DNA from: Schmidtea polychroa
Taxonomy: Eukaryota
Assembly: GCA_044892525.1 (NCBI GenBank)
Contig: CM097886.1
Span: forward strand, 33,542,001-33,606,000
DNA length: 64,000 nucleotides
Direction of reading: 5' to 3'
In this document: positions 3,104 through 59,239 of the stretch, piece by piece
Layout: each line of letters begins with the position of its first letter
Numbering within the stretch: the stretch's first letter is position 1
Translations under genes and position numbers: made by a program
The notes under the pieces: model-generated
Told to the model about the DNA's origin: nothing
Database searches by the model: none
The model's input: the letters and a program-made list of their open reading frames with translations, nothing else

Positions 3104-3413
3104 TTAAATATTGTTTAAACTTGCTCTCCTAACTGGTAAATACAAGGGATTTTTTATTTGTATTTGTACAACTTCATCTTGGTCATATGTTTTAATCCAC
3201 ATGGCTTTTAAAAGAGGGATCAGTGAATCACCAACATTTAATAATAATTGAGTTAATGATATCGCTATCGATGAACATTTGTTGATGATTAAATATTTTT
3301 CCTTTACGAATTCCACCGAATTGTTTGTCGTTATATATTTGTTTCTGTAATCTATATGTGTTCAGCAAGTTTTTATCGAATATAACCTCTTTTATGTTTT
3401 CACCAAAATGCAT
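3104..3413 (-). pseudogene. Probable Polinton/Maverick minor capsid (penton) gene remnant, frameshifted
   Basis: Joining ORFs 3228-3413 and 3104-3316 gives HQQMFIDSDII..NVGDSLIPLLKAMWI..VVQIQIKNPLYLPVRRASLNNI. This matches the Polinton penton C-terminal pattern (YxDIIxxxxVGDxxxPLLR...xxPxYxPV). Confidence 0.55.
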
Positions 3414-3982
3414 TTCCTTTCAGTTCAACAGATTTGAAAATACAGGAAAAATTCTTTAAATCAAGTTAGAAGATTTGTCATTCAAAGTTTATAGAAAAGT
3501 AATTGCAAACATTGGTTTCCTTGTCAGTTTATTCAAATTATTCTAGAAAATTGAGTGTGTTTATGAACCTGAAATATTTCCAGCATTAAGGTATACAAAA
3601 TATAATCCCATGCGTGAGTACATATTTTCAAGCGGTAAAGTAGTTATACTGAGAATAAAAAACATCAATTATCATTAATTTGTCGATCAGGTTATTAATG
3701 AAATAAAATCAATAATCGAAGAGGAAGAGTTTTTATATTTTTTATTCTCTTGATTGATTGCAGATCAGATGCAATAAAAGCGTGAAATTATGATTGGCTT
3801 ATTTTTTACCCATGACAATTTTTTGATTGACTGCACACACGCATATAATAGTATAAACGATGATGTATGATGAAACATCATAATTTTAAACATGCATTTT
3901 GTTTTTAAACAAACAAGTCCACTGATAAAAATAACCGGTGAAGATAAATCAATGTTTTTAAAGACAATGAAACCAAACCCTT

Positions 3983-12110: not shown

Positions 12111-14055
12111 TGCAGTATTACCTCGATATTCCGGACCTCTATTATTTGGATTAATTTTTGGTTCCGAATTAATTTAAAGAATTATCCTTATCATTTGTCT
12201 GCCACCATAATATGTTTCAAAAAATATTGATCTATCTATTATGACTTATTATATAATCTCAATAAGTTCGGTGCTTATTGAATGTTAATTATAGGGGATT
12301 GTGAATTAATTACCAATACCTCACACAAATCTTTTCTAACTTATTATTAAAAATTTTATACAAAATTGTAAAAACTTTAAAACACTTGCTCCTTTACATA
12401 TTTTTTAGTCTCAATAATATTAGTCACACTTTTCAATAGGCTATGTTTGTGAACCTGCTTGCGGAGATGAGTGGAGTCTCTCCAATTTATGTGACACTGC
12501 ACTCATTGTATGAAATCCTACAAATTGGATCAGACACTCAACCTATTGGAATTTCAGATTTATTCCAAAATTATTTTAATGATTTTAAAGATTTTGACAC
12601 TATTTTAAATATATTGGAATTGCCTAATGAGAGAAAACTTAACATTTTAAAATTCGCTTGAATATGGAATAACTAAATATCACATTTTATAAATCCAAGA
12701 CTATTAACTGAAATATAATTTCCATTGTTTTCATCAGGGGCTATCAAAGGCGATCAATGGTTTTTGTAGACATCTTCTAATAAATTTAAATAAAGTTTCA
12801 TTTACTTCGTTATTAACACTGTGCATGAGGTCTTTGAAATATTCTAGTTTTTGTTGTTTGTTTTATAACGGACAAATAATTGGAAACTAATAAAGAAAAA
12901 TACGCTCGTTATTCGACTATTTAGTTGTTTGATCAGTGTTACTAGTTATTTAACAGTATTTTAGAAAAACATTCGTTATNNNNNNNNNNNNNNNNNNNNN
13001 NNNNNNNNNNNNNNNNNNNNNNNNNNNNNNNNNNNNNNNNNNNNNNNNNNNNNNNNNNNNNNNNNNNNNNNNNNNNNNNNNNNNNNNNNNNNNNNNNNNN
13101 NNNNNNNNNNNNNNNNNNNNNNNNNNNNNNNNNNNGATGGATTATTTTTTGTTTAATTAAATATTTAGTCCTGAAAAATAATTGAAAAGTTTAATTAATT
13201 TTAAAATAAATGAAGAAAATATAATCTGATTCAATTTGTTTGCCATTTTAGCTATAAATCCGATTGAATTCTTATTTTCAGATTTTATTTGATGTATTCA
13301 ACAATAATCTATTAAATTAATTTTGTTAATAAAAGTAGTCGAACTAAATTAATTTTTTTGATTACTTATATAAATGAATAAATATTATTTATTAGAAAGT
13401 AATAAAACTTTTTTTACTCTAAGAAAACTGTAAATATATGTATTTTCTCACAGTTTTCAAGATAAACAAATATTTACATAAAGCAGTTTAAAGTGCCGCC
13501 ATTTGCTCGATTTACCTTTAATTTCAAACCGCATCAAAAATTAACTTTATTATATTGTTTTAATTATTGTTCTCAAGTAAGAACCCCCCAAGAGTAAATT
13601 AAATTTCTACAAACTACGAAATTATTTTCTTTAATTAATAATCACTAAAATATTTTGTTTACTTTTGATTTGCTTTTTTCTTATTTCAAAATTTCATTTT
13701 TCATATTTCGACAACTGATAAATATTTTCCCATTTTATACAATAATAGCCACTGAAATATTCAAGTGTTGTTTTTACAGTCAATTTTGACAAGATATTTT
13801 GTAATATCTTAAAATATTAATTGCAGTTTAATTCAATTGAACGCGCAATAGTTAATAATGCCATGATTAAAATTGGAAATAACAATGAATGTCAAATGTT
13901 AATTATTAATAGGCGAAAATAGTTCAAAACTTCATGAAAAAAGTTGGTATTTAGATGTCGTTTACAAACTTTAAATTCTAGAAATAAAACTATTAATTTT
14001 CTAAAATTTCTGAAAATTGTAAATAATATTTTCCTTGTAAGATTTATTCGCTTAA

Positions 14056-32128: not shown

Positions 32129-32501
32129 TATTAGAAGCTCCTAACACATCTTCTAAATTATTTTTTAAATCCGGTTCAAAAGTTAACGTCATAATTTCAA
32201 GTATTTATTTAATGACATATTGTCTAATTTCCAAACAAATTTTTAGCGTTGAATAAAATATTTCAAAAACCCTTCATTATCAAATTTCGATATATATTAT
32301 TAAAATATATTTAAAATATATTTATTTAAAAATGATTTACTAATAAAAAGCTTGTTTAATTTTTTAATTTCAAAATTTCAATTTAAAAAATTCAATTTAA
32401 AAAGGTTTTTAAAAGTTATTTTAAATAGTCAATTATTTATCATTTAAAATAATCTTAATAAATCATTGAAATATTTAATTCTCAGCTGAAAACACCTCAC
32501 A
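32129..32501 (-). repeat. Gypsy 3' LTR (TG...TA)
   Basis: Starts TGTGAGG right after the PPT; homologous to 36771-36918 and 39403-39747. Confidence 0.92.
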
Positions 32502-32514
32502 TCCCCCTTCTTTA
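32502..32514 (-). promoter_or_regulatory. Polypurine tract
   Basis: Minus strand AAAGAAGGGGGA immediately precedes the 3' LTR. Confidence 0.85.
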
Positions 32515-32519
32515 AGAAA

Positions 32520-33431
32520 TTTCTTCATCTTTTCAACATTTTTTTGAAGAATTTTCCCACTTTGGTCTTGTAGCATATATCGGCGATCATGGATCTTCTG
32601 CATTATTCTGTATGGCCCTTCGTATCTTTCCTTGTCTTTCGTTCTTGATTCGACTTTTACTAGAACCTCATCTCCAATATTGATTAATCTTTTGGTTTGC
32701 GTTGTTTCTCGTGTATCTTCTTTTCGTGAAATCGGCGCTTTACTATGAAATTGTTCTCGAGTTATTTTCCTTCAAAATATTACTTCTGCGGGACTTCGCC
32801 TTATTGATTTCTGAAATTTTGCATTCATGGTAAATTCAATCTCTGATATGATCTCTGCCCAATCTGTTCTACTTTTTTCTTTTAATGATGCATTTATATA
32901 GTCTCTTATTGTCCTGAATTGACGTTCTATCACACCATTTGTATTATGGTGGTATGGACTTGAAAAGCATTGTGTAATTCCCATTGATTTTGTAAAATCT
33001 TTCATCGTCTTAGATTCAAATACTTTTCCATAATCTATGTGAATTTCCTTTGGTGCTCCAAATCTAAGAATCCATTTTTGTAGTATCGTTTCCTTCATCA
33101 TTTCCTCATCCTGTTTAGCGACAGCAGTCCGAGACATATATCTGCTAAATTGATCAATCATTGCAACTATATATCTTTTCTTTCTGAAAGTTTCCTGTAA
33201 TGGGCCACATATATCAATGTGCACTTTCTCGCACGGCTTCTCTATTGTCAGTTTTATTGTCTTTTCCTTCATCTTTGTTATCACAACTTTCGTTCTTTGA
33301 TATGCCTCACATTGTCCAATTGTTTCTTTTACTGATTCTTTTATGTCTCCCATATTGTAATTGTCCGCTACATATTTTGTCACCTTTTCTGCTCCTGTGT
33401 GTGATAGCAAAATATGCATACTCTTTATCAT
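32520..33431 (-). pseudogene. Gypsy integrase (HHCC, DDE, GPY/F)
   Basis: HTGAEK..CEAYQR, HIDICGPL, IDQFSRY, SSPYHHNTNGVIER; RYEGPYRI near 32620 in another frame. Confidence 0.95.
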
Positions 33432-33625
33432 TTCTTGTTTTCTGTCTCTAGATATTCATATCTTACCCTCAATAGTTTTCACCACATTGTCTACCAGTAT
33501 AAATTTAAAATTTGAACTGTGCTATTTCCTTTGTTATTTGTTCTATTTCTGTATTATCTTTTTGCCACTTATCTTCATTTGCCAATTATCTTCAGCTTTT
33601 TCAATCGTGTTTATTCTTCAGGTTT

Positions 33626-34060
33626 TCATTCTTTCCACTTTCGCGTCTTCGTGTGCCAATAAACATTATGTGCAAGTTCCACATGTTCCGTACCTTTTCT
33701 ATACTCTATTTTAATATTTAGACTACTAAGGTAGTTAATCCATGTCTGAAATTGCGTTGTTATTGGTTTCTTTGTGGATAACATAAACGTGATAGCATTA
33801 TGGTCCGTTCTCAAAATGAACCATTTTCCATATAAATAATGATTGAAGTGTTGGCAAAAATAATTGATTGCCAGCAACTTTTTCCTTGTTATACAATATC
33901 CCTTATCATGATTTCTCATTGCATGAGAACCGTATGCTATAACCTTTACGCACCCGTTGTCGTCTTTCTGTGATAATACTGCTTCAATCATATCAAAACT
34001 CAAATCAGTATCTAGAATGAATTTGGAAACCCTAGAATAGATGAGGACATTAAAGCATTT
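33626..34060 (-). pseudogene. Gypsy RNase H
   Basis: AVLSQ..VIAYGS..YCITRKKLLAI..FNHYLYG..RTDHNAI..IEYRKG. Confidence 0.93.
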
Positions 34061-34095
34061 TTCATATTTTCAAATGCAATGTTGCATCCGTCAGT

Positions 34096-34938
34096 TCAAA
34101 TTAAATTTTTGTTGTTTAACCCGCATAGCTCTTCTAAAACTCTTGCCTTTTTTGCGTATTCTTTTATAAATCTTATTCCTAGGAAGCTTTTCAGATTCTT
34201 AACACATTTTAGCTTTTCAAATGATTTAATCGCATCTAGCTTTGACGGGTTCGTCTTTATTCCATTTTTGTTGGTTATGTGACCTAAAGATTTGACTTCC
34301 TCTTTAAGGATATGGCACTTTTCAGGGTTTATCCTAAGACCCGCCTTTCCAATTTTATCCAGCATTTCATTTAAAACTTCGTAGTGATGATTGATCGTTT
34401 CTGGAAATATCAAAATATCTTCTAGGTATACTGCATATCTCGTACCCATTAATACTTTTCCCATCAGTTCCTGAAATGTACCTGATGCCGCTGGTATTCC
34501 ATATGGCATTCTGTTAGAACAGTATTGACCTGGTTGAAACGCTGTTTTTAACTTTGATTCGTCTTCTAGTTCTACTTGATAATATGCATTTCCAAGATCT
34601 ATCAAACTGAAATACTTTTCTCCATCCAATTTATCTAACATCTCTGTTATATTCGGCATAAGGAACGCTCGTCTCTCTGTTACTAGGTTTAATTGCCTGA
34701 AATCAAGGCCTAATCTGATATCTTGCTTTTCTTTCTTTCAGACGCATATTATTGCAATGTTCCATGGCGAATTACACTTTTTGATAACATTGTTTTCCCA
34801 TAAGATTTTTATTGCTTCATCTATTTTACCTTCCAAGTTAACCGGTTGTCTCCAAGGTTTAATATTTATCGGTTTTCCTTGAGTTGCTATTTTATGCTTC
34901 AACAACTTTGTGCAGTCAATGTCACATTTATCAGCCAT
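34096..34938 (-). pseudogene. Gypsy reverse transcriptase (frameshifted, YxDD decayed to YLED)
   Basis: KPINIKPWR, SPWN, FSLIDLGNAYYQVEL, RMPYG, YLEDILIF, NPEKC, LGH. Confidence 0.95.
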
Positions 34939-35020
34939 AAATACATTTTGATTCTTTTTTATAATGTTTAGTAGTATCGGGTTACTTATCTATAAAGTAT
35001 TCTTTGCTCTTTGAAATCGT

Positions 35021-35700
35021 TCAATCTCCGTTTTTGTCTTCCCAAATTTTGCTTCGATACTGCATATGTGCTCTTGCTTCGCTTTCTCGACCTCTTCTAC
35101 TCGCCATTTTTGTTGTATACCAAATTGTTTTTTGCAACTCTATACCACCAATTATCTCTGGAGTTATATATCTTACTATCGTAAACTTTACCCATCTTTT
35201 CCTGCTATTTATTCCTATTTCTAATATTGCATTACCTTTCGTTTCTAAAACACTATTATTTACACATCTCAATGTGTTAGTCGTTGTTGTTAGCTCTACA
35301 TCTTTAAGTTTCTTAAATTTTCTCCAACTCGTGACATTTACTGTAGCGCCATATCGAGCAAGCATTCCATATTCTGGTCTTGTATTCTAATAGTTGCACT
35401 TGGTCAGCCTTGCATTTTATCATAACTAATAATTTCATTTTTCCATTCGTCTAATGTGAGTATTTGTATTTAAGTATTCTCTTTCTATTTCTGCAAAATC
35501 CTTTTTTATGAATCGGTTTACTTTCCTTATTACATTATTTTCTTCTTCCGTTACCTTTGTATCTTTAACATCTTTTTCTCTAATACATGATATTTTACTT
35601 TTATTAAAATAATTAATAATTTGGGAGTCAGCATCGCTGTTTAATACACTGCACCGACTATCTCCTCTTCTATCGGGGTGTTGATATTTGGGTATTCTCT
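35021..35700 (-). pseudogene. Gypsy aspartic protease region, degenerate
   Basis: LNSDADSQII near 35630 (decayed LDSGA motif), followed by ETKGNAILEIGIN..IIGGIE. Confidence 0.65.
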
Positions 35701-35989
35701 GTATTTATCTTCTATTCTTTCATCACTTGGTTCGTCTATGAATCCTACGTATCTCTTGTCTGCTTGTCTTGTATCCTTTCTAATTCCTTGATAACGATGC
35801 CCTACTTCGTATCAATCTTGTTGTATTCCAAAATTTTCATTTATTCTCAGATATCTCATCCTCTCAAAATTTTTGTAACAATGTGCCTTTTTATGACCTC
35901 TCAAGCTACACCTCGTACACCTTATTTTTTGGCAATCTCTTCTTATGTGTCACGGGGTACCACACGCATAACATTCGACTACCTTTCTC

Positions 35990-36770
35990 TGCATCTGTGG
36001 ACACTGACTTCTTACATGTCCTTGTTTTTCACATGTAAAACATCTAACTGCCTTCTTTGTTGTGCAATCTTTACTCATATGTCCTACCCTGTGACATATC
36101 CAACATTCATTCTTAGTTCTGTTCGGTCTTTCTTCTCAATACTCTCTCGGCTCGCTATTATATCTTGGTGATACAATATTTCTTGCTTGATTTGTTACCG
36201 CGTCTCTGTAACTTCTTCTTATATTCTGTTCTGGTCTTCTTTCTCTCACTGCATAGATCTCTTGTGCAACTGTATAAGATTCGTGTAACTTCTTAATTTT
36301 TTTCTTCACTTCTGTTGTTCCTTTGGTGTCACTTAGACACAATTCTCGTTTTAAAGTCTTCTCGGCTGCACAATGTACCAGCAGATATTCTGTTAAATTT
36401 TCCTTGTTTAACTCATGCCCCAATATTTTATCGACTAACTCGTCTATGATAGTAAAATATTTATCGGGCTCCTCACTCGTCTGTCTATAAGACATAGTAG
36501 ATTGTATATCCTCTGCCAAACCTTTTTTCTTGACAAATGCCTTCCACAATCCTTCCTTATAATATTTGATATTTTGGTCAACTCCTGTATATACATATCT
36601 TATCAGTTTATCGATCAGTAATTCGACCATCACTTCTTGTCTTGAAGTAGGCATTTGTACCATTTTAAAATATTTATCGCATTCTTTAATGAATGATTCA
36701 ACATCATCTTCTCTATGATAATCGTTTGGAAATAGTTTCTTTATGAAGAAACCCATAAGCGTGGTCAACA
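35990..36770 (-). pseudogene. Gypsy gag with two CCHC zinc knuckles (in-frame TGA at 36136-36138)
   Basis: ORF 36136-36834 continues in frame past the stop to CWICHRVGHMSKDC..CFTCEKQGHVRSQC. Confidence 0.9.
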
Positions 36771-36918
36771 TATTAGAAACTCCTAACATATCTTCTAAAT
36801 TATTTTTGAAATCCGGTTCAAAAGTTAACGTCATAATTCTAAGTATTTATTTAATGAAATATTTTCCAAATAAATTTTCAGCGTTGAATAAAATATTTCA
36901 AAAATCATTTATTAAAAT
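36771..36918 (-). repeat. Gypsy 5' LTR, only the internal-proximal ~150 bp retained
   Basis: Matches 32129-32280; homology stops at ~36918. Confidence 0.9.
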
Positions 36919-36961
36919 AAGATAAACATTACAAGCTTTGTGATACCCAGTGCAAATCCCA

Positions 36962-37003
36962 ATAGTAGACTAGTTTCGAGCTTTTGGCTCTCATCAGTAC
37001 TAT
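36962..37003 (-). ncRNA. Canonical minimal type I hammerhead ribozyme
   Basis: ATAGTA-CTGATGA-GAGC-caaaa-GCTC-GAAA-CTAGT-C-TACTAT: 6-bp stem I, 4-bp stem II, palindromic stem III ACTAGT, GUC cleavage triplet. Confidence 0.9.
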
Positions 37004-39402
37004 GCAGTGTTTCGGTGATTTTAAAAGTAAATACTAGTTTGTTAATAAAAGCGTTTAAAAACTAACAGAAATTCTCGTACAACGGCAGGCAAACAACAAT
37101 AAGCATTTAATTTTCTTAAAAGTTATAAAATAATTATTCTTGTTTAAATAAATAAAACAAATCACAAATCACTGCAAATCTATAAATCTCAAATTATGTT
37201 CTCAGTTAGTCAATCTAATAATAAAAAATAAAATAATTTAATTTAATTAATTTTTAATAAAAAATAAAACCACATTATTTATTAAAAATTAAAATTTTGA
37301 AAGACTAATTAAAACAATTCAAGATGATTTAATAGTTTGTCAAATAAAAACTAAATAAATTACAATTGAAAGTGAAAGTATTTGAGTTTTATTATTTTGT
37401 TTTAATATTTTAATATTTATTCAACTGACCTTGAATTAATTAGATTTTTAATAAGGGATTTTAGAAAATCTAAGTCAATTATTAATTTTTTTACCAACTA
37501 AGAAACAAATTCAATAGTTATGAAATAAATAATTTTTTTGAAATTTTTAATTATACAAAGATTTAATTAATAGAATTTATATTACAAATTTGTTGGAGTT
37601 GCACAAGAATGCTTAAAATAAACGGTAAATGGAAATTGTTAGAAATTAATTAAAGGCTAATTAAATATTCAAAAAAGTAAAGTAATATTTTTCGGGAGTT
37701 TGTGGTTTAAGGTGGCAAATTAAAATTTCAATACGAGTAGAACGAATAGAAGTAGGACGAAAGAAATACATTCAATGAAAAAACAAATTAAATTTTTAAT
37801 CTCTTTTTTTATTCAAGGACAACTCATAAATTATTGGGAAAATCTCGGAGTTGGTAAATTGATTGGTTTCGTAAATCATTTTTAAATGAATTGCTCCAAT
37901 AATTGATTGTGCTGATAAGTGAGGAAATTTGCCAATTTTGTCAGAACAACGAATGTGCGTTTTAAAGACAAAGGAAGAGCTTAAACCAATAGCTAACCAT
38001 CAGATAGCAAATTGTTTTGACGCAGTGAAATCCGTTGGAAATCTACCCCAAGTATAATTTGAAATTATTGTGAATGCATAATATTTTCCTGTGATCAATA
38101 AAAATATTTTATTTTATTGCGTTTTCCTTTGAATTTTTATTAAACACGGGAGTCAGATTCAGAGTTAATTTCTCTTGAAACTTTAATATTATCTCAACAA
38201 ATTTTTAAATCATAAACTTTGTATTTATAATTTTTAATTAAAATTATCAACTATAATGTAAATTAAATTAACTAATAATAATAAATTATTTAATAAATTA
38301 ATTAGGAACGAAAGTAGTGTTTCACATAAATTTAAGGACACCATTTTTTAAAATTTAATTTTGAAATTTATTTTGTCAGTTAAGATGTTATTATCAGGTA
38401 CCAAAATAAATTCATTACCAAATATATATATGTATATTCGTGTAATAAAATCAAAGCTTTATTAATCCTTTTAAAATTAATTGGAAACATTTTATAATAA
38501 CGAGCCCAATAATTTTTGAAACCCGTTGATAGAAAATTTATGACATCAATTAAATTTAATTCAATTAAAAGTGTAAAGAAAATAGTAAAGAAAACATAAA
38601 TAATTTATTATTAATAAATCAGATATTTTTTTATGTTTGGTAAAAGTTTTGTTTCAACATAAGTTATGTTAAAATTCTCTTTCGATTACACATTTTACAA
38701 TGTCCATATACTAAGTCTCAAAATATAATAAAAAATCATTAAATTAAAATTAAAATGATAAAATAATGTAAATAATTTATATTTTTTTTAATATTTAATT
38801 AAATAATTATTATTATAATAAATATTTAAATATTCAAAATATTATAATATTCTAAACATTATATATATTACTATTTTAAAAATATTTATTTTTTGTAATA
38901 GATTGGCTTTAACTTTCAATTTAACTGCGCAAAATATTCTCATTTATTTAACAAGAAATCTTTATTCGATGCTTAATTGTTAAAGAAAGAAAATTTTATG
39001 GAACTTTATAATTTGCAAATTAAAATCAGATTTCCGAAGAAATTTAAAACGCCTACCATCCCTGAAGCCAAGAATTTTAATCTTTCATGTGAATAATAAA
39101 TTCAAACAAATCAAGCGTTTCATCCACTTCCTTCTTATTTACTATAATATAAACTTTTTTTCGTAAATGTCATTTTATACATTGAAAATTGCAATAATTT
39201 ATTTTTACATAACAAATTTTACAGCTAAAACTCAACAAAATATAGTCAAGAAATATAATATTAATAAACCATTGCGTAGATAGCTTATTAAAATACATTA
39301 TTAGGTTCTTTAGAAATAAACATTTAAAAAAGATTTTTATTTTGAAAGACTTTTATACATAATAACCAAAAACTGAAAAATGATGATATATATAATTAAA
39401 CA

Positions 39403-39747
39403 TATTAGAAGCTGCTAGCACATCTTCTAAATTATTTTTTAAATCCGGTTCTAAAGTCATAATTCCAAGTATTTATTTAATGAAATATTGTATAATTTTC
39501 AAACAAATTTTCAGCGTTGAATAAAATATTTTCAAAACCATTTATTAAAATTTCGATATTTAAAATATATTTATTTAAAAATTATTTACTCATAAAACTT
39601 GTTTTATAAAGCTTGTTAAATTTTCCAATTTAAAAAATAAAATTTAAAAATTATTTTAAAAGTTATTTTAATAGTCCATTATTTATCATTTAAAATTATT
39701 TTAATAAATCATTGAAATATTTAATTCTCAGCTGAAAACACCTCACA
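39403..39747 (-). mobile_element. Solo LTR of the same Gypsy family
   Basis: Full-length match to 32129-32501, flanked by a perfect 5-bp TSD AAACA. Confidence 0.95.
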
Positions 39748-49530: not shown

Positions 49531-51142
49531 TCTGTTAAAAGTTTTATAATTTAAGTCTTCTGATTACGAAGAGACATGCAGATTGAGGACCTTATATCTC
49601 CTTGAAACTTCCTTTAAAAGGAGAAAAAAAATTTAGTTTTATTGACATTGCAGATTAAACTGGTAATAGATTGACAAATTCTTTAATAAATAAAATTAAA
49701 AAAATTTAATTTAGACATTTAAAAAAAAGATTATGATAACAAAGCAAAAGATAAAAGAAATAATCTTCAACGACATATCCTAAACATTAGCCCTATTTCA
49801 ACTTTTACATCCTGTTCTTCTCATTCCTGGAATTTAGTCGTTAGTAACACTGGGAACATTAATGATGCCTCATTTAGAACTTCATAAAGATATGAAAATA
49901 TAAAATAAGTGTTTAATATAATAAGATAAGACATTTTGTCTGAGTTTTATGTAATAAAAATTAAAAGTTTTCACTTTATATTCTTGTTTGTAATTTTTTT
50001 TGATGAAACTGAATAGAAAACCTTTTAGAAAAATGCTTCAAATTATAGCGACATAAATTGGAATTGTATTGGACGCTTCTAATCATATACTTGAAAATTG
50101 CCAACTATGTATATTAAAATATATCATTGCTATATATTTCGACTGTTTAACAATCTTCTTCAGGCTAGGAATCGTATTATTAACAACTAAATGAAAATAA
50201 GAATATTCAAACAAATTAATAAATAATAATTGTAATAAAATTGTATCAAACTAAAAAATATTTTAATAAAATCTTTCTTTTTTTTGAGAATTATAAACAT
50301 TTTTTAATCATAAATATAATTATTTTAATTTTAAAAAAACGCACAAAATTGTTAACATTCCCATACAAAATTCTTGAGCATTGCCGGCAAATGGATTGAC
50401 CCACGTTAGTGATCATTTTAGGAAGTGTACCAGTAAAAAAATAAGTATTTCTGATCTTAAGATTTTGTCAAAAAATTTGAGTAATTACTGGGAACGAGTA
50501 ATCAATCTTTTAACTGTTAAGCGTGAGAACTATTTCGATAATGTCGCAGATACGTATCATCACATGAAATTAATTTAGATCACAGAAACAAGTTAACAGG
50601 AACAATTTAACAACGCACAACACCAATTTTGATTTTTTAAATAATATTAAAAATTTACCAAATTTAAAGGATAAAAAAATTAAGATGGTGATAAAGAGGA
50701 GAATGGGAGCTCAGACTAAAAAAGAAGGATACAGAGAAATAATATTTTTAGAATTGTCTAAAGAAGTTTAGCACTTTTACGTTATCTAGTACGTGTTTAT
50801 TTGGAAATATAAATCATAGCTGAGACATTTTGTTTGAACTTGTTTGCTCTTAGATACATGCTAATAATTATTGCTATTTTGTCATGCGCAATTTGTACGG
50901 GTCACTAAACTTTACATATTAATAGAGTTGATACTTATTATAAATTAGATTATTCATATTCTGATCATAAATACTTATTTCACTTAATTAACATGAAACC
51001 TTGTAATTACACATATAATAATTAATATAAATTATCATATAAACATCATAAAATTTTCTAAAAATATATATATATTATAAGAACTTTTTTTTTAAATTTC
51101 ACCATTGATTTCTTTTTCATTGACATTGTATTTATTGAAAAG

Positions 51143-57260: not shown

Positions 57261-59239
57261 TATTTTTTGAAATGCGGTATTTGCTAATATTTGAAATTTT
57301 TGACAGCATGGAAATGGTCAAACTAGTTTAATGTAACTTGTGTTTCAAAAAATTCAAATTGTTTGTTGATGTTGTTTAACTATATAATACGTTTCACATA
57401 TAAGCACCGTTTTCTCTATGTTGAGGTCTCAAATAATTTTACTTAAAAATTCAACATGCACATATTCCTATTTAAAAAATACGGAAAAAAACATATACCT
57501 ATTTAAATAATTTTAAAAATTTTTATTAAAATAAAATTTACCAATTAATTTTTGTATTGTTCTTTATACACAATTTATTATTCAGTTATTTTTGATTTTT
57601 CAAATTCACGAAAAGGTGCGTGTTATATATTCTGTTATATGTTGTATTGTTCGTGCTGTGTTATACGTGCAAAAATAAATGTATTAAAAATTTTTGTCTG
57701 TTTAAAAGTTATTATCTCTTCGAAATTTATTCTAAAAGACCTTAGAAATTTGGTTTAATTTTGGGTCAGTATTTATATTGAATTTTAAATGTTATATATT
57801 TATATTGAATTTTAAATGTTAAAATAAGTAAATTTAAATTTATAATTATGTCCATAATATGTGAACATTAAATTTAATTTAATTATACCTATAATTATTC
57901 CATAATTTTTGAATGTTAAAATAGATTTTTACATATTGATATTTTAAAGTGTATATTTCATGAATTATTAATGATTATTAATTACTTAATTATTAATTAC
58001 TTTATATATAATAATATTTTTCACTGTATAATTTATTTTAATTGTTTTAATTTATACACAATAAAATACATAAGATATATTAATAAAAGGCATTCAAATA
58101 TTTACAGATAACAACTGTAGTGCCTCCACTTTATAGATGTACTAAAAGATATATAGGTAAAAAACCACTTGTTGAAATAATCAGAAGGGAAACCAAGCTC
58201 GTATGAAATAAAGAGAAACAAGAATATAAGAAAATATGAAGCTCATCAATAAAGTTTGCAGTAACAATTCAGAAGAAATTTTCATCCAGCACGGGTATCG
58301 CAGCCAAATCATTATTACGTTCAGATGGGATTCAGAAATCAACATTGCAATTTTATAATTAATAAATTTTCGGAGTTATTAATTATAATGTCTTTCATAG
58401 TTACCATATTCGGTGTCGGAAGTCCGGAAAAAGCGAATACATTTACACAACCGATTTGAATTTCGATATTCCATCATCATTTTGTTCGACTAAATATGGC
58501 TACCTACAATTTTTTCAAGACGAAAATTCGTGAAAATATTTACAAATTAATTAATGAAAGAAATTCTCTCATAAACTGTGTCAATTTATCTGGCAGTTTC
58601 AAATCGCTTTGCTATTTTAAACGCATTTTTTAAAATCAATAGTTCATTGAATAATAGTCAATCGGAATTTTCTGTACGATTTATTGTAGTTCATACTGGA
58701 TTGTGGGACAGTTCCTCGTGTTGTATTTCAATGATGAATGGAGTATCCATAGCACAGAAGCATGACATTTGTATCGATGTTTGCATTCTGAATCACGACG
58801 ATTCATCGACAAACAATTCTCAACCGACCAAATTCGATAAGACGAATAAATTTCTGCCAATCTATTTCCCAAAAACGTTAGAAGTGGAGCGACGAAGAAA
58901 TCAACATCAAGCCGGTACCAAGGCGAGATTAACGGGCGAGTGGTATTTTAAATATATTTTTTATTATATTGTTTTTTTATAGATATTTTTATCGATTTCC
59001 AGCACTATTCATTATATATTAAATCAATTGTAAAAATTTCTGTTGAAATTAAATAATTAAATATTACATTATTTTATTATAGTTACAGGTTATTTACTGA
59101 AATTAAAGTTTGTCATTGACCTTGAGAATAACTGATAATAAAAAAATTGTAAAAATAATAATTAAGATAACATAGAAATTTTAGGAAATATGCTTTCAAA
59201 AGATAGGAATAAAAATGAAAATTGACACATTTATTAAAA

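Follow-up and report, generated by a model that had tools for sequence, protein, structure and literature searches.

The hammerhead motif at positions 36962-37003 on the minus strand of the window, the 64,000-nucleotide stretch of Schmidtea polychroa DNA analyzed here, very probably belongs to a 109-bp copy, truncated and in part inverted, of a 371-383-bp repeat; the copy likely entered a decayed Gypsy LTR by Penelope-type insertion and is probably inert there. The repeat forms a retrozyme family that, by analogy with characterized elements, we infer to be moved by a PLE.

The motif itself is a canonical type I hammerhead with a predicted cut after C17 at 36968. All of its parts map to the minus strand: the 5′ and 3′ strands of helix I occupy 37003-36998 and 36967-36962 (6 bp), the C3-A9 box spans 36997-36991, and helix II pairs 36990-36987 with 36981-36978 (4 bp, with G10.1-C11.1 as the closing pair and a loop of 5 nt); G12-A14 lies at 36977-36975, the palindrome ACUAGU at 36974-36969 holds the 2-bp helix III and its UA loop, and the GUC triplet has its C17 at 36968. 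The intact core, perfectly paired stems I and II, GUC triplet and C17 position described in the earlier note are thus borne out, as is its view that the weak, palindromic 2-bp stem III would likely need a second copy. The sequence contains each of the features that define RF00163 (core C3-A9, G12-A15.1, U16.1-H17, helices I-III, open at helix I) and aligns exactly over 36962-37003 to the full model (1-45), at 27.4 bits and E 4.3e-5 in a 161-nt search, a score that falls under the gathering score of 34 bits; an Rfam scan of the whole window listed only RF02275 (E 0.37) at the site. With a strict type I descriptor, the window gave 1 match and 300 shuffled windows together gave 7 (0.023 per window). 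Canonical metazoan type I hammerheads, as described by Cervera and de la Pena (2014, PMC4209133), have a helix I of 6 bp, a helix II of 4 bp, a helix III of 1-2 bp and a small palindromic loop, a geometry that the motif reproduces with helices of 6, 4 and 2 bp, the last palindromic. The PLE minimal hammerheads of the same description differ in having a helix II of 7-8 bp, a helix I of 4-5 bp and an additional base inserted between 9 and 10.1; here helix II has 4 bp, helix I has 6 bp, and no extra base separates A9 from G10.1. The label of a minimal, PLE-type hammerhead given to the motif on first inspection is therefore wrong.

Three hammerhead-like motifs of PLE minimal build do occur elsewhere in the window, at ~150, 10755 and 50163, all on the minus strand and all with the extra base before helix II; the motif at 36962-37003 is, as first proposed, distinct from them. 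The motifs at ~150 and 10755 correspond to the 3′ terminus of a GIY-YIG PLE family, and the remnant of an endonuclease is found at 50387-50503. A GIY-YIG endonuclease remnant is also present at 12254-12627 (minus strand). Domain matches in the window further mark an amiloride-sensitive channel exon (PF00858; 17017-17922, minus strand) and a DNA-transposon-like frame with a Spin-doc zinc finger (PF18658; 44775-45416, plus strand), and there is a weak Tfb4 match at 58575-58982 (plus strand).

Free-energy folding of the 42-mer favors a core paired in a slipped register (z -1.97, with 10 of 200 shuffles doing as well), which is expected because helix III is so weak, and folding alone therefore does not single the hammerhead out. 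No compensatory pair changes were seen among the 100 listed of 1282 relaxed-core matches, in which substitutions are scattered, so the assignment of the fold rests on its match to known hammerheads and not on covariation. Canonical type I hammerheads make a loop 1/loop 2 tertiary contact on an extended helix I; beyond the core, the family can form a 4-bp distal helix I, in which one position facing a G is either U (47/57) or C (9/57); the window copy retains 2 of the 4 pairs, at -6.6 versus -11.0 to -12.9 kcal/mol. Pairing of the palindrome in trans contributes only -4.8 kcal/mol. A conformational switch, in which an upstream hairpin would block helix I, was considered and rejected: the probability of helix I is 0.86 with or without 60 extra nucleotides. 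From these sequence comparisons we regard the motif as confirmed, with self-cleavage as its predicted activity.

Search of the animal's own genome and comparison within the family place the hammerhead in a 95-bp, 5′-truncated retrozyme piece (36913..37007, minus strand) whose 5′ limit lies 10 nt before C3 and whose 3′ limit is the "short" one of the family. Adjoining it is a 14-bp inverted piece of the same unit (37008..37021, plus strand), identical to L047 and with one mismatch to the unit of L117; it derives from ~95 nt upstream of the U1-like tip of the family. As a control, 3 of 2912 random 14-mers from the window matched within one mismatch, and none of 1500 with at least 4 G+C did so. 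The two pieces together make a sub-monomer of 109 bp that lacks the U1-like tip. At the other junction, comparison with the solo LTR reveals a 5-bp A/T microhomology between the retrozyme end and the LTR (36913..36917, minus strand). No target-site duplication flanks the copy, and the DNA at 37022-37540 gave no repeat among 40 scored matches. The fragment remains close to its relatives: relative to 70 sampled copies, 0 of 85 positions differ for 4 and at most 2 differ for 40.

The unmasked window (1526 bases were masked) contains no second copy of the family, so dimer activation in cis is not available, and any cleavage of the lone copy would need family RNA in trans. The proposal of dimeric activation through the palindrome thus stands insofar as a second copy is likely needed, and fails insofar as the unmasked window offers no family partner. 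With its single hammerhead, the locus is also not an "active" retrozyme locus as the preprint of Li et al. uses the term, whereas L110 and L160-L162 are. Without a partner in cis, and with 2 of the 4 distal helix I pairs retained, the window copy is likely inert.

When the genome (781 Mb) was searched with 36900-37200, dispersed matches were confined to ~37007-36913, mostly at 96-100% identity (40 scored of 320 candidates), and in the dispersed copies the 95-bp block has abrupt limits on either side. Counts for the genome are 873 for the exact 30-nt core and 1282 for a relaxed one (control 0 for each). The parent of the motif had been expected among retrozymes or PLEs, and the search indeed led to a family of non-coding tandem repeats, with head-to-tail units of 371, 378 and 383 bp and no ORF between the hammerheads. 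The units fall into two subfamilies, of ~371 bp and 378-383 bp (L110 and L160-L162 against L035 and L117), and the indels between them lie mainly outside the region from the U1 tip to the hammerhead. A reading of the antisense strand as an intron plus ORF (a 5′ splice site, then an ATG) was dropped because the units close on themselves after about 370 bp. With a type I hammerhead, non-coding tandem repeats in the 150-450-bp range, and neither LTR nor PBS nor PPT, the family has the makeup of a non-LTR retrozyme. The 378-nt monomer of L161, the one real monomer folded as a circle, is predicted to be highly self-paired (-113.9 kcal/mol, 68% paired, z -5.0 versus 60 shuffles). A plant-type LTR retrozyme, which has a type III hammerhead in each of its two LTRs together with PBS, PPT and TSD, does not fit, since the hammerhead is type I and is absent from the other Gypsy LTRs, and neither does a PLE pseudo-LTR, since no ORF with RT and GIY-YIG lies between tandem cores in the loci examined. 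Contigs of three sequencing runs of uncertain kind, tentatively taken as RNA, also carry family pieces, which have no bearing on strand, ends or transcription; one contig, from a run labeled as a second organism, spans L047 4158-4379 (U1 tip plus hammerhead) with 12 differences in 222 nt. The family may therefore be common to more than one species, or the run may be mislabeled or mixed.

The ends of the copies were characterized in 60 regions, all on contig C1, sampled among the first 100 places listed. These hold 67 distinct cores, 36 of them with the short 3′ end, 22 ending ~40 nt further on and 9 running into the next unit, the last class being inflated because 6 of the 60 loci are tandem regions, 4 of which were picked for their spacing. 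A microsatellite abuts 19 of the 36 short ends versus 3 of the 22 long ones. Pieces on both strands occur in 20 of the 60 loci, and the 5′ break points lie anywhere between 3 and 362 nt ahead of the core; 9 of 58 are, as in the window copy, within 20 nt of it. The targets are AT-rich (ATT). For the Poseidon PLE PAc of the anole, two internal RT start sites, an optional 30-40-bp tail and ATT targets have been described in vitro (Frangieh et al. 2024, PMC11167929); the two 3′-end classes of the family match such a pair of start sites downstream of the hammerhead with an optional tail, and its targets are ATT-rich too, but it differs in that PAc is autonomous, with an ORF starting at the hammerhead, while the retrozyme has no ORF.

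We propose, from known retrozymes and PLEs, that tandem source loci are transcribed, and that two hammerheads, joined by pairing of their helix III palindromes, excise a monomer, which would then circularize. A PLE protein would nick A/T-rich DNA, prime reverse transcription at either of two fixed internal positions that lie downstream of the ribozyme, and copy a variable distance round the template. For the window copy, synthesis would have ended 10 nt beyond the core, after which a short inverted piece would have been added.

An autonomous partner sharing the 3′ end of the retrozyme was not found; one GIY-YIG PLE family (21 loci) was examined. A frame beside the retrozyme in L027 had led to this family (150 scored matches), which was considered as a parent and rejected: it carries its own, different hammerhead, and the retrozyme adjoins only 2 of the 21 loci, one of which had been chosen through the retrozyme. 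The same observations bear on the alternative that fares best, namely that an autonomous PLE elsewhere has the block as its pseudo-LTR end, the short copies being truncated ends of that PLE with no free retrozyme. A PLE-like 3′ tail, inversions and ATT targets would suit it, a GIY-YIG frame adjoins the family in L027 and L054, and retrozymes have been argued to derive from pLTRs (Li, Clavereau and Pollet, bioRxiv 10.64898/2026.07.22.740005). However, the units lie head to tail with no ORF between hammerheads, the widely shared sequence ends within ~0.4-0.9 kb in 20 family loci compared with 3-4-kb flanks, and 19 of the 21 loci of the neighboring PLE family lack this hammerhead. We accordingly give this alternative only a slim chance.

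The copy adjoins a broken Gypsy element. Immediately downstream lies a 144-bp 3′ remnant of the Gypsy 5′ LTR (36771..36914, minus strand), whose first ~225 bp are absent and which agrees with the 3′ LTR at 133 of 144 aligned bases, leaving 11 differences. The internal region (32502..36770, minus strand) is broken into at least 8 separate frames, with a gag-like frame, RT, RNase H and integrase, and ends in the 3′ LTR (32129..32501, minus strand), which follows a purine tract. A solo LTR of the same family, flanked by a 5-bp target duplication, is found at 39403..39747 (minus strand). The LTR termini of this Gypsy family are TG...TA rather than TG...CA, with 5-bp target duplications (39403-39747, 32129-32501 and L038), and the gag-like open frame starts inside the 3′ end of the LTR. 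No clear tRNA primer site was found 3′ of the 5′ LTR remnant. A placement of the hammerhead within the Gypsy LTR, with the purine-rich bases that follow as primer-binding site, was rejected, as those bases are retrozyme sequence and the ends of the LTR are set by target duplications. The fragment is likely younger than the Gypsy element, judging from sequence divergence, because it is near-identical to sampled copies, in contrast to the two Gypsy LTRs, which show 11 differences over 144 positions.

The hammerhead had been placed on the same strand as, and ~45 bp upstream of, the LTR remnant; this is borne out, with a measured gap of 48 bp (36962 to 36914), all of it retrozyme sequence. It had further been proposed to process Gypsy read-through transcripts. 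That reading, or one in which the ribozyme is the sign of a Gypsy lineage whose LTR acquired a hammerhead, can draw on the direct, same-strand fusion of ribozyme and LTR remnant, on a same-strand solo LTR 2.4 kb upstream that could in principle start transcription, and on a second locus, L038, where an LTR of the same family again touches the retrozyme. In L038 (~3360-3780), however, it is the solo LTR that was inserted within the retrozyme hammerhead, dividing it in two and creating a 5-bp duplication, and none of the three other LTRs of the family (the 3′ LTR, the solo LTR of the window and that of L038) has a hammerhead. Furthermore, a query with the junction found a full match only in the window (40 scored of 1423 candidates), the Gypsy element is itself broken, and no second family copy in the unmasked window could act in cis. 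Chance contact between retrozyme and Gypsy is expected because both families are common in the genome. A role in Gypsy processing is thus unsupported and, in our judgment, highly improbable. No more credible is it that the fragment is filler, from family RNA or DNA, put in during repair of a break in which the LTR lost its front: such a capture, or a deletion at a later time, could account for the missing target duplication, the ~225 bp lost from the LTR and the 5-bp microhomology at the 3′ junction, but the 3′ end of the fragment is the commonest end class of the family and its inverted 5′ tag resembles a third of the sampled loci.

Taken as a Penelope-type insertion of a retrozyme, the copy and its family can be set beside several known systems. 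Like metazoan non-LTR retrozymes, as described by Cervera and de la Pena (2020, PMC7229834) and in the preprint (10.64898/2026.07.22.740005), the family combines a type I hammerhead with non-coding, low-GC tandem units (350-390 bp in mussels; PMC7229834), occurs as monomers, dimers and trimers, has a strongly self-paired predicted circle and coexists with PLEs; its weak palindromic helix III is like that of axolotl HHR_Amex1 in the same two sources. It differs from those descriptions in carrying 16 nt of the host U1 5′ end, in the mere 109 bp of the window copy and in that its circles and its self-cleavage are predicted. With the minimal hammerheads of PLE pLTRs, as described in PMC4209133 and PMC6765202, it shares type I topology, a palindromic helix III region and predicted action as a dimer; the longer helix II, shorter helix I and extra base between positions 9 and 10.1 (PMC4209133) set those apart, and they flank an RT-endonuclease ORF, which the window retrozyme does not. 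SINEU of crocodilians (Kojima 2015, PMC4494074) is likewise a short non-autonomous retroposon with U1-derived sequence, which is attributed to template switching. In that account, however, SINEU has snRNA-derived 5′ heads, is moved by Tx1 and comes with no mention of a hammerhead, whereas the retrozyme holds no more than 16 nt of U1, located within a tandem unit that is circularly permuted. A further tandem repeat with a hammerhead (PMC7229834) is newt satellite 2, for which an internal snRNA-type promoter has been reported (Coats et al. 1994, as cited in PMC2220036); any promoter of the retrozyme family is, by comparison, putative.

The U1 tip of the family consists of nucleotides 1-16 of host U1 snRNA, located 46 nt upstream of the core in the unit (L035, L043, L047, L161 and others). 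It matches 16/16 to the U1 genes L071 and L073 and 18/19 to the tandem-array variant L081, is present within two mismatches in 52 of 67 sampled cores, and, together with the next 10 nt, has 770 exact copies in the genome. The tip is predicted to pair with a 5′-splice-site-like strand just upstream in a long cis hairpin, and the 12-nt bins over it are no more uniform than their neighbors (94-95% versus 91-98%). A transcription start at the U1-like +1 gains no support from the 5′ break points, only 2 of 58 of which lie 44-46 nt upstream of the core, without a peak. Several divergent U1 types coexist in the genome, including a tandem array with a period of ~1.77 kb (C4 74.00-74.06 Mb; L081, L082), and U1 variants with changed 5′ ends (L074, L076, L078) lie beside U5 genes at C1 78.84 and 80.76 Mb (L071-L079).

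An octamer-like motif with a TGCA core is found ~65-75 nt upstream of U1, U2, U4 and U5 genes (L073, L075, L080, L083, L093, L095, L099-L103). This motif may be the snRNA promoter element of the animal, and the retrozyme has TGCAA at -65. Of 14 distinct U1/U2/U4/U5 upstream regions, 6 have TGCA at -66 to -70; the repeat, whose unit contains 4 TGCA in 383 nt, has one at -65, a resemblance that is suggestive at most. U5 genes lack TGCA at -66 to -70 and have TGTAA instead. When the 120 nt upstream of 17 snRNA loci were compared with the repeat, the score of the best locus was reached by 2 of 60 shuffles, uncorrected for the many comparisons. The tip would be most simply explained, by analogy, through template switching onto U1 and subsequent amplification. 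A more elaborate reading, in which the captured U1 end is masked by the hairpin and serves either to start snRNA-type transcription or, on an abundant circular RNA, as a decoy that binds splice sites, is speculative and we consider it unlikely. In the literature covered (main texts, mostly of papers available without subscription), we found no account in which part of U1 accompanies the hammerhead of a retrozyme or a Penelope element. The family was also not recognized in the titles and abstract openings of the Schmidtea hammerhead literature.

With about a thousand such scraps dispersed in the genome, the window locus matters little by itself; the U1 tip, the only unusual trait, is that of the family and absent from this copy, whose origin is ordinary. 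It does illustrate that an inserted retrozyme can look like an LTR equipped with a ribozyme. For the family, the two 3′-end classes, the inversions and the ATT targets provide sequence-level support for Penelope-type mobilization of animal retrozymes. The fixed U1 tip, if functional, would make the question of retrozyme transcription directly testable, and such a function, if true, would tie a self-cleaving mobile RNA to the splicing machinery of its host.
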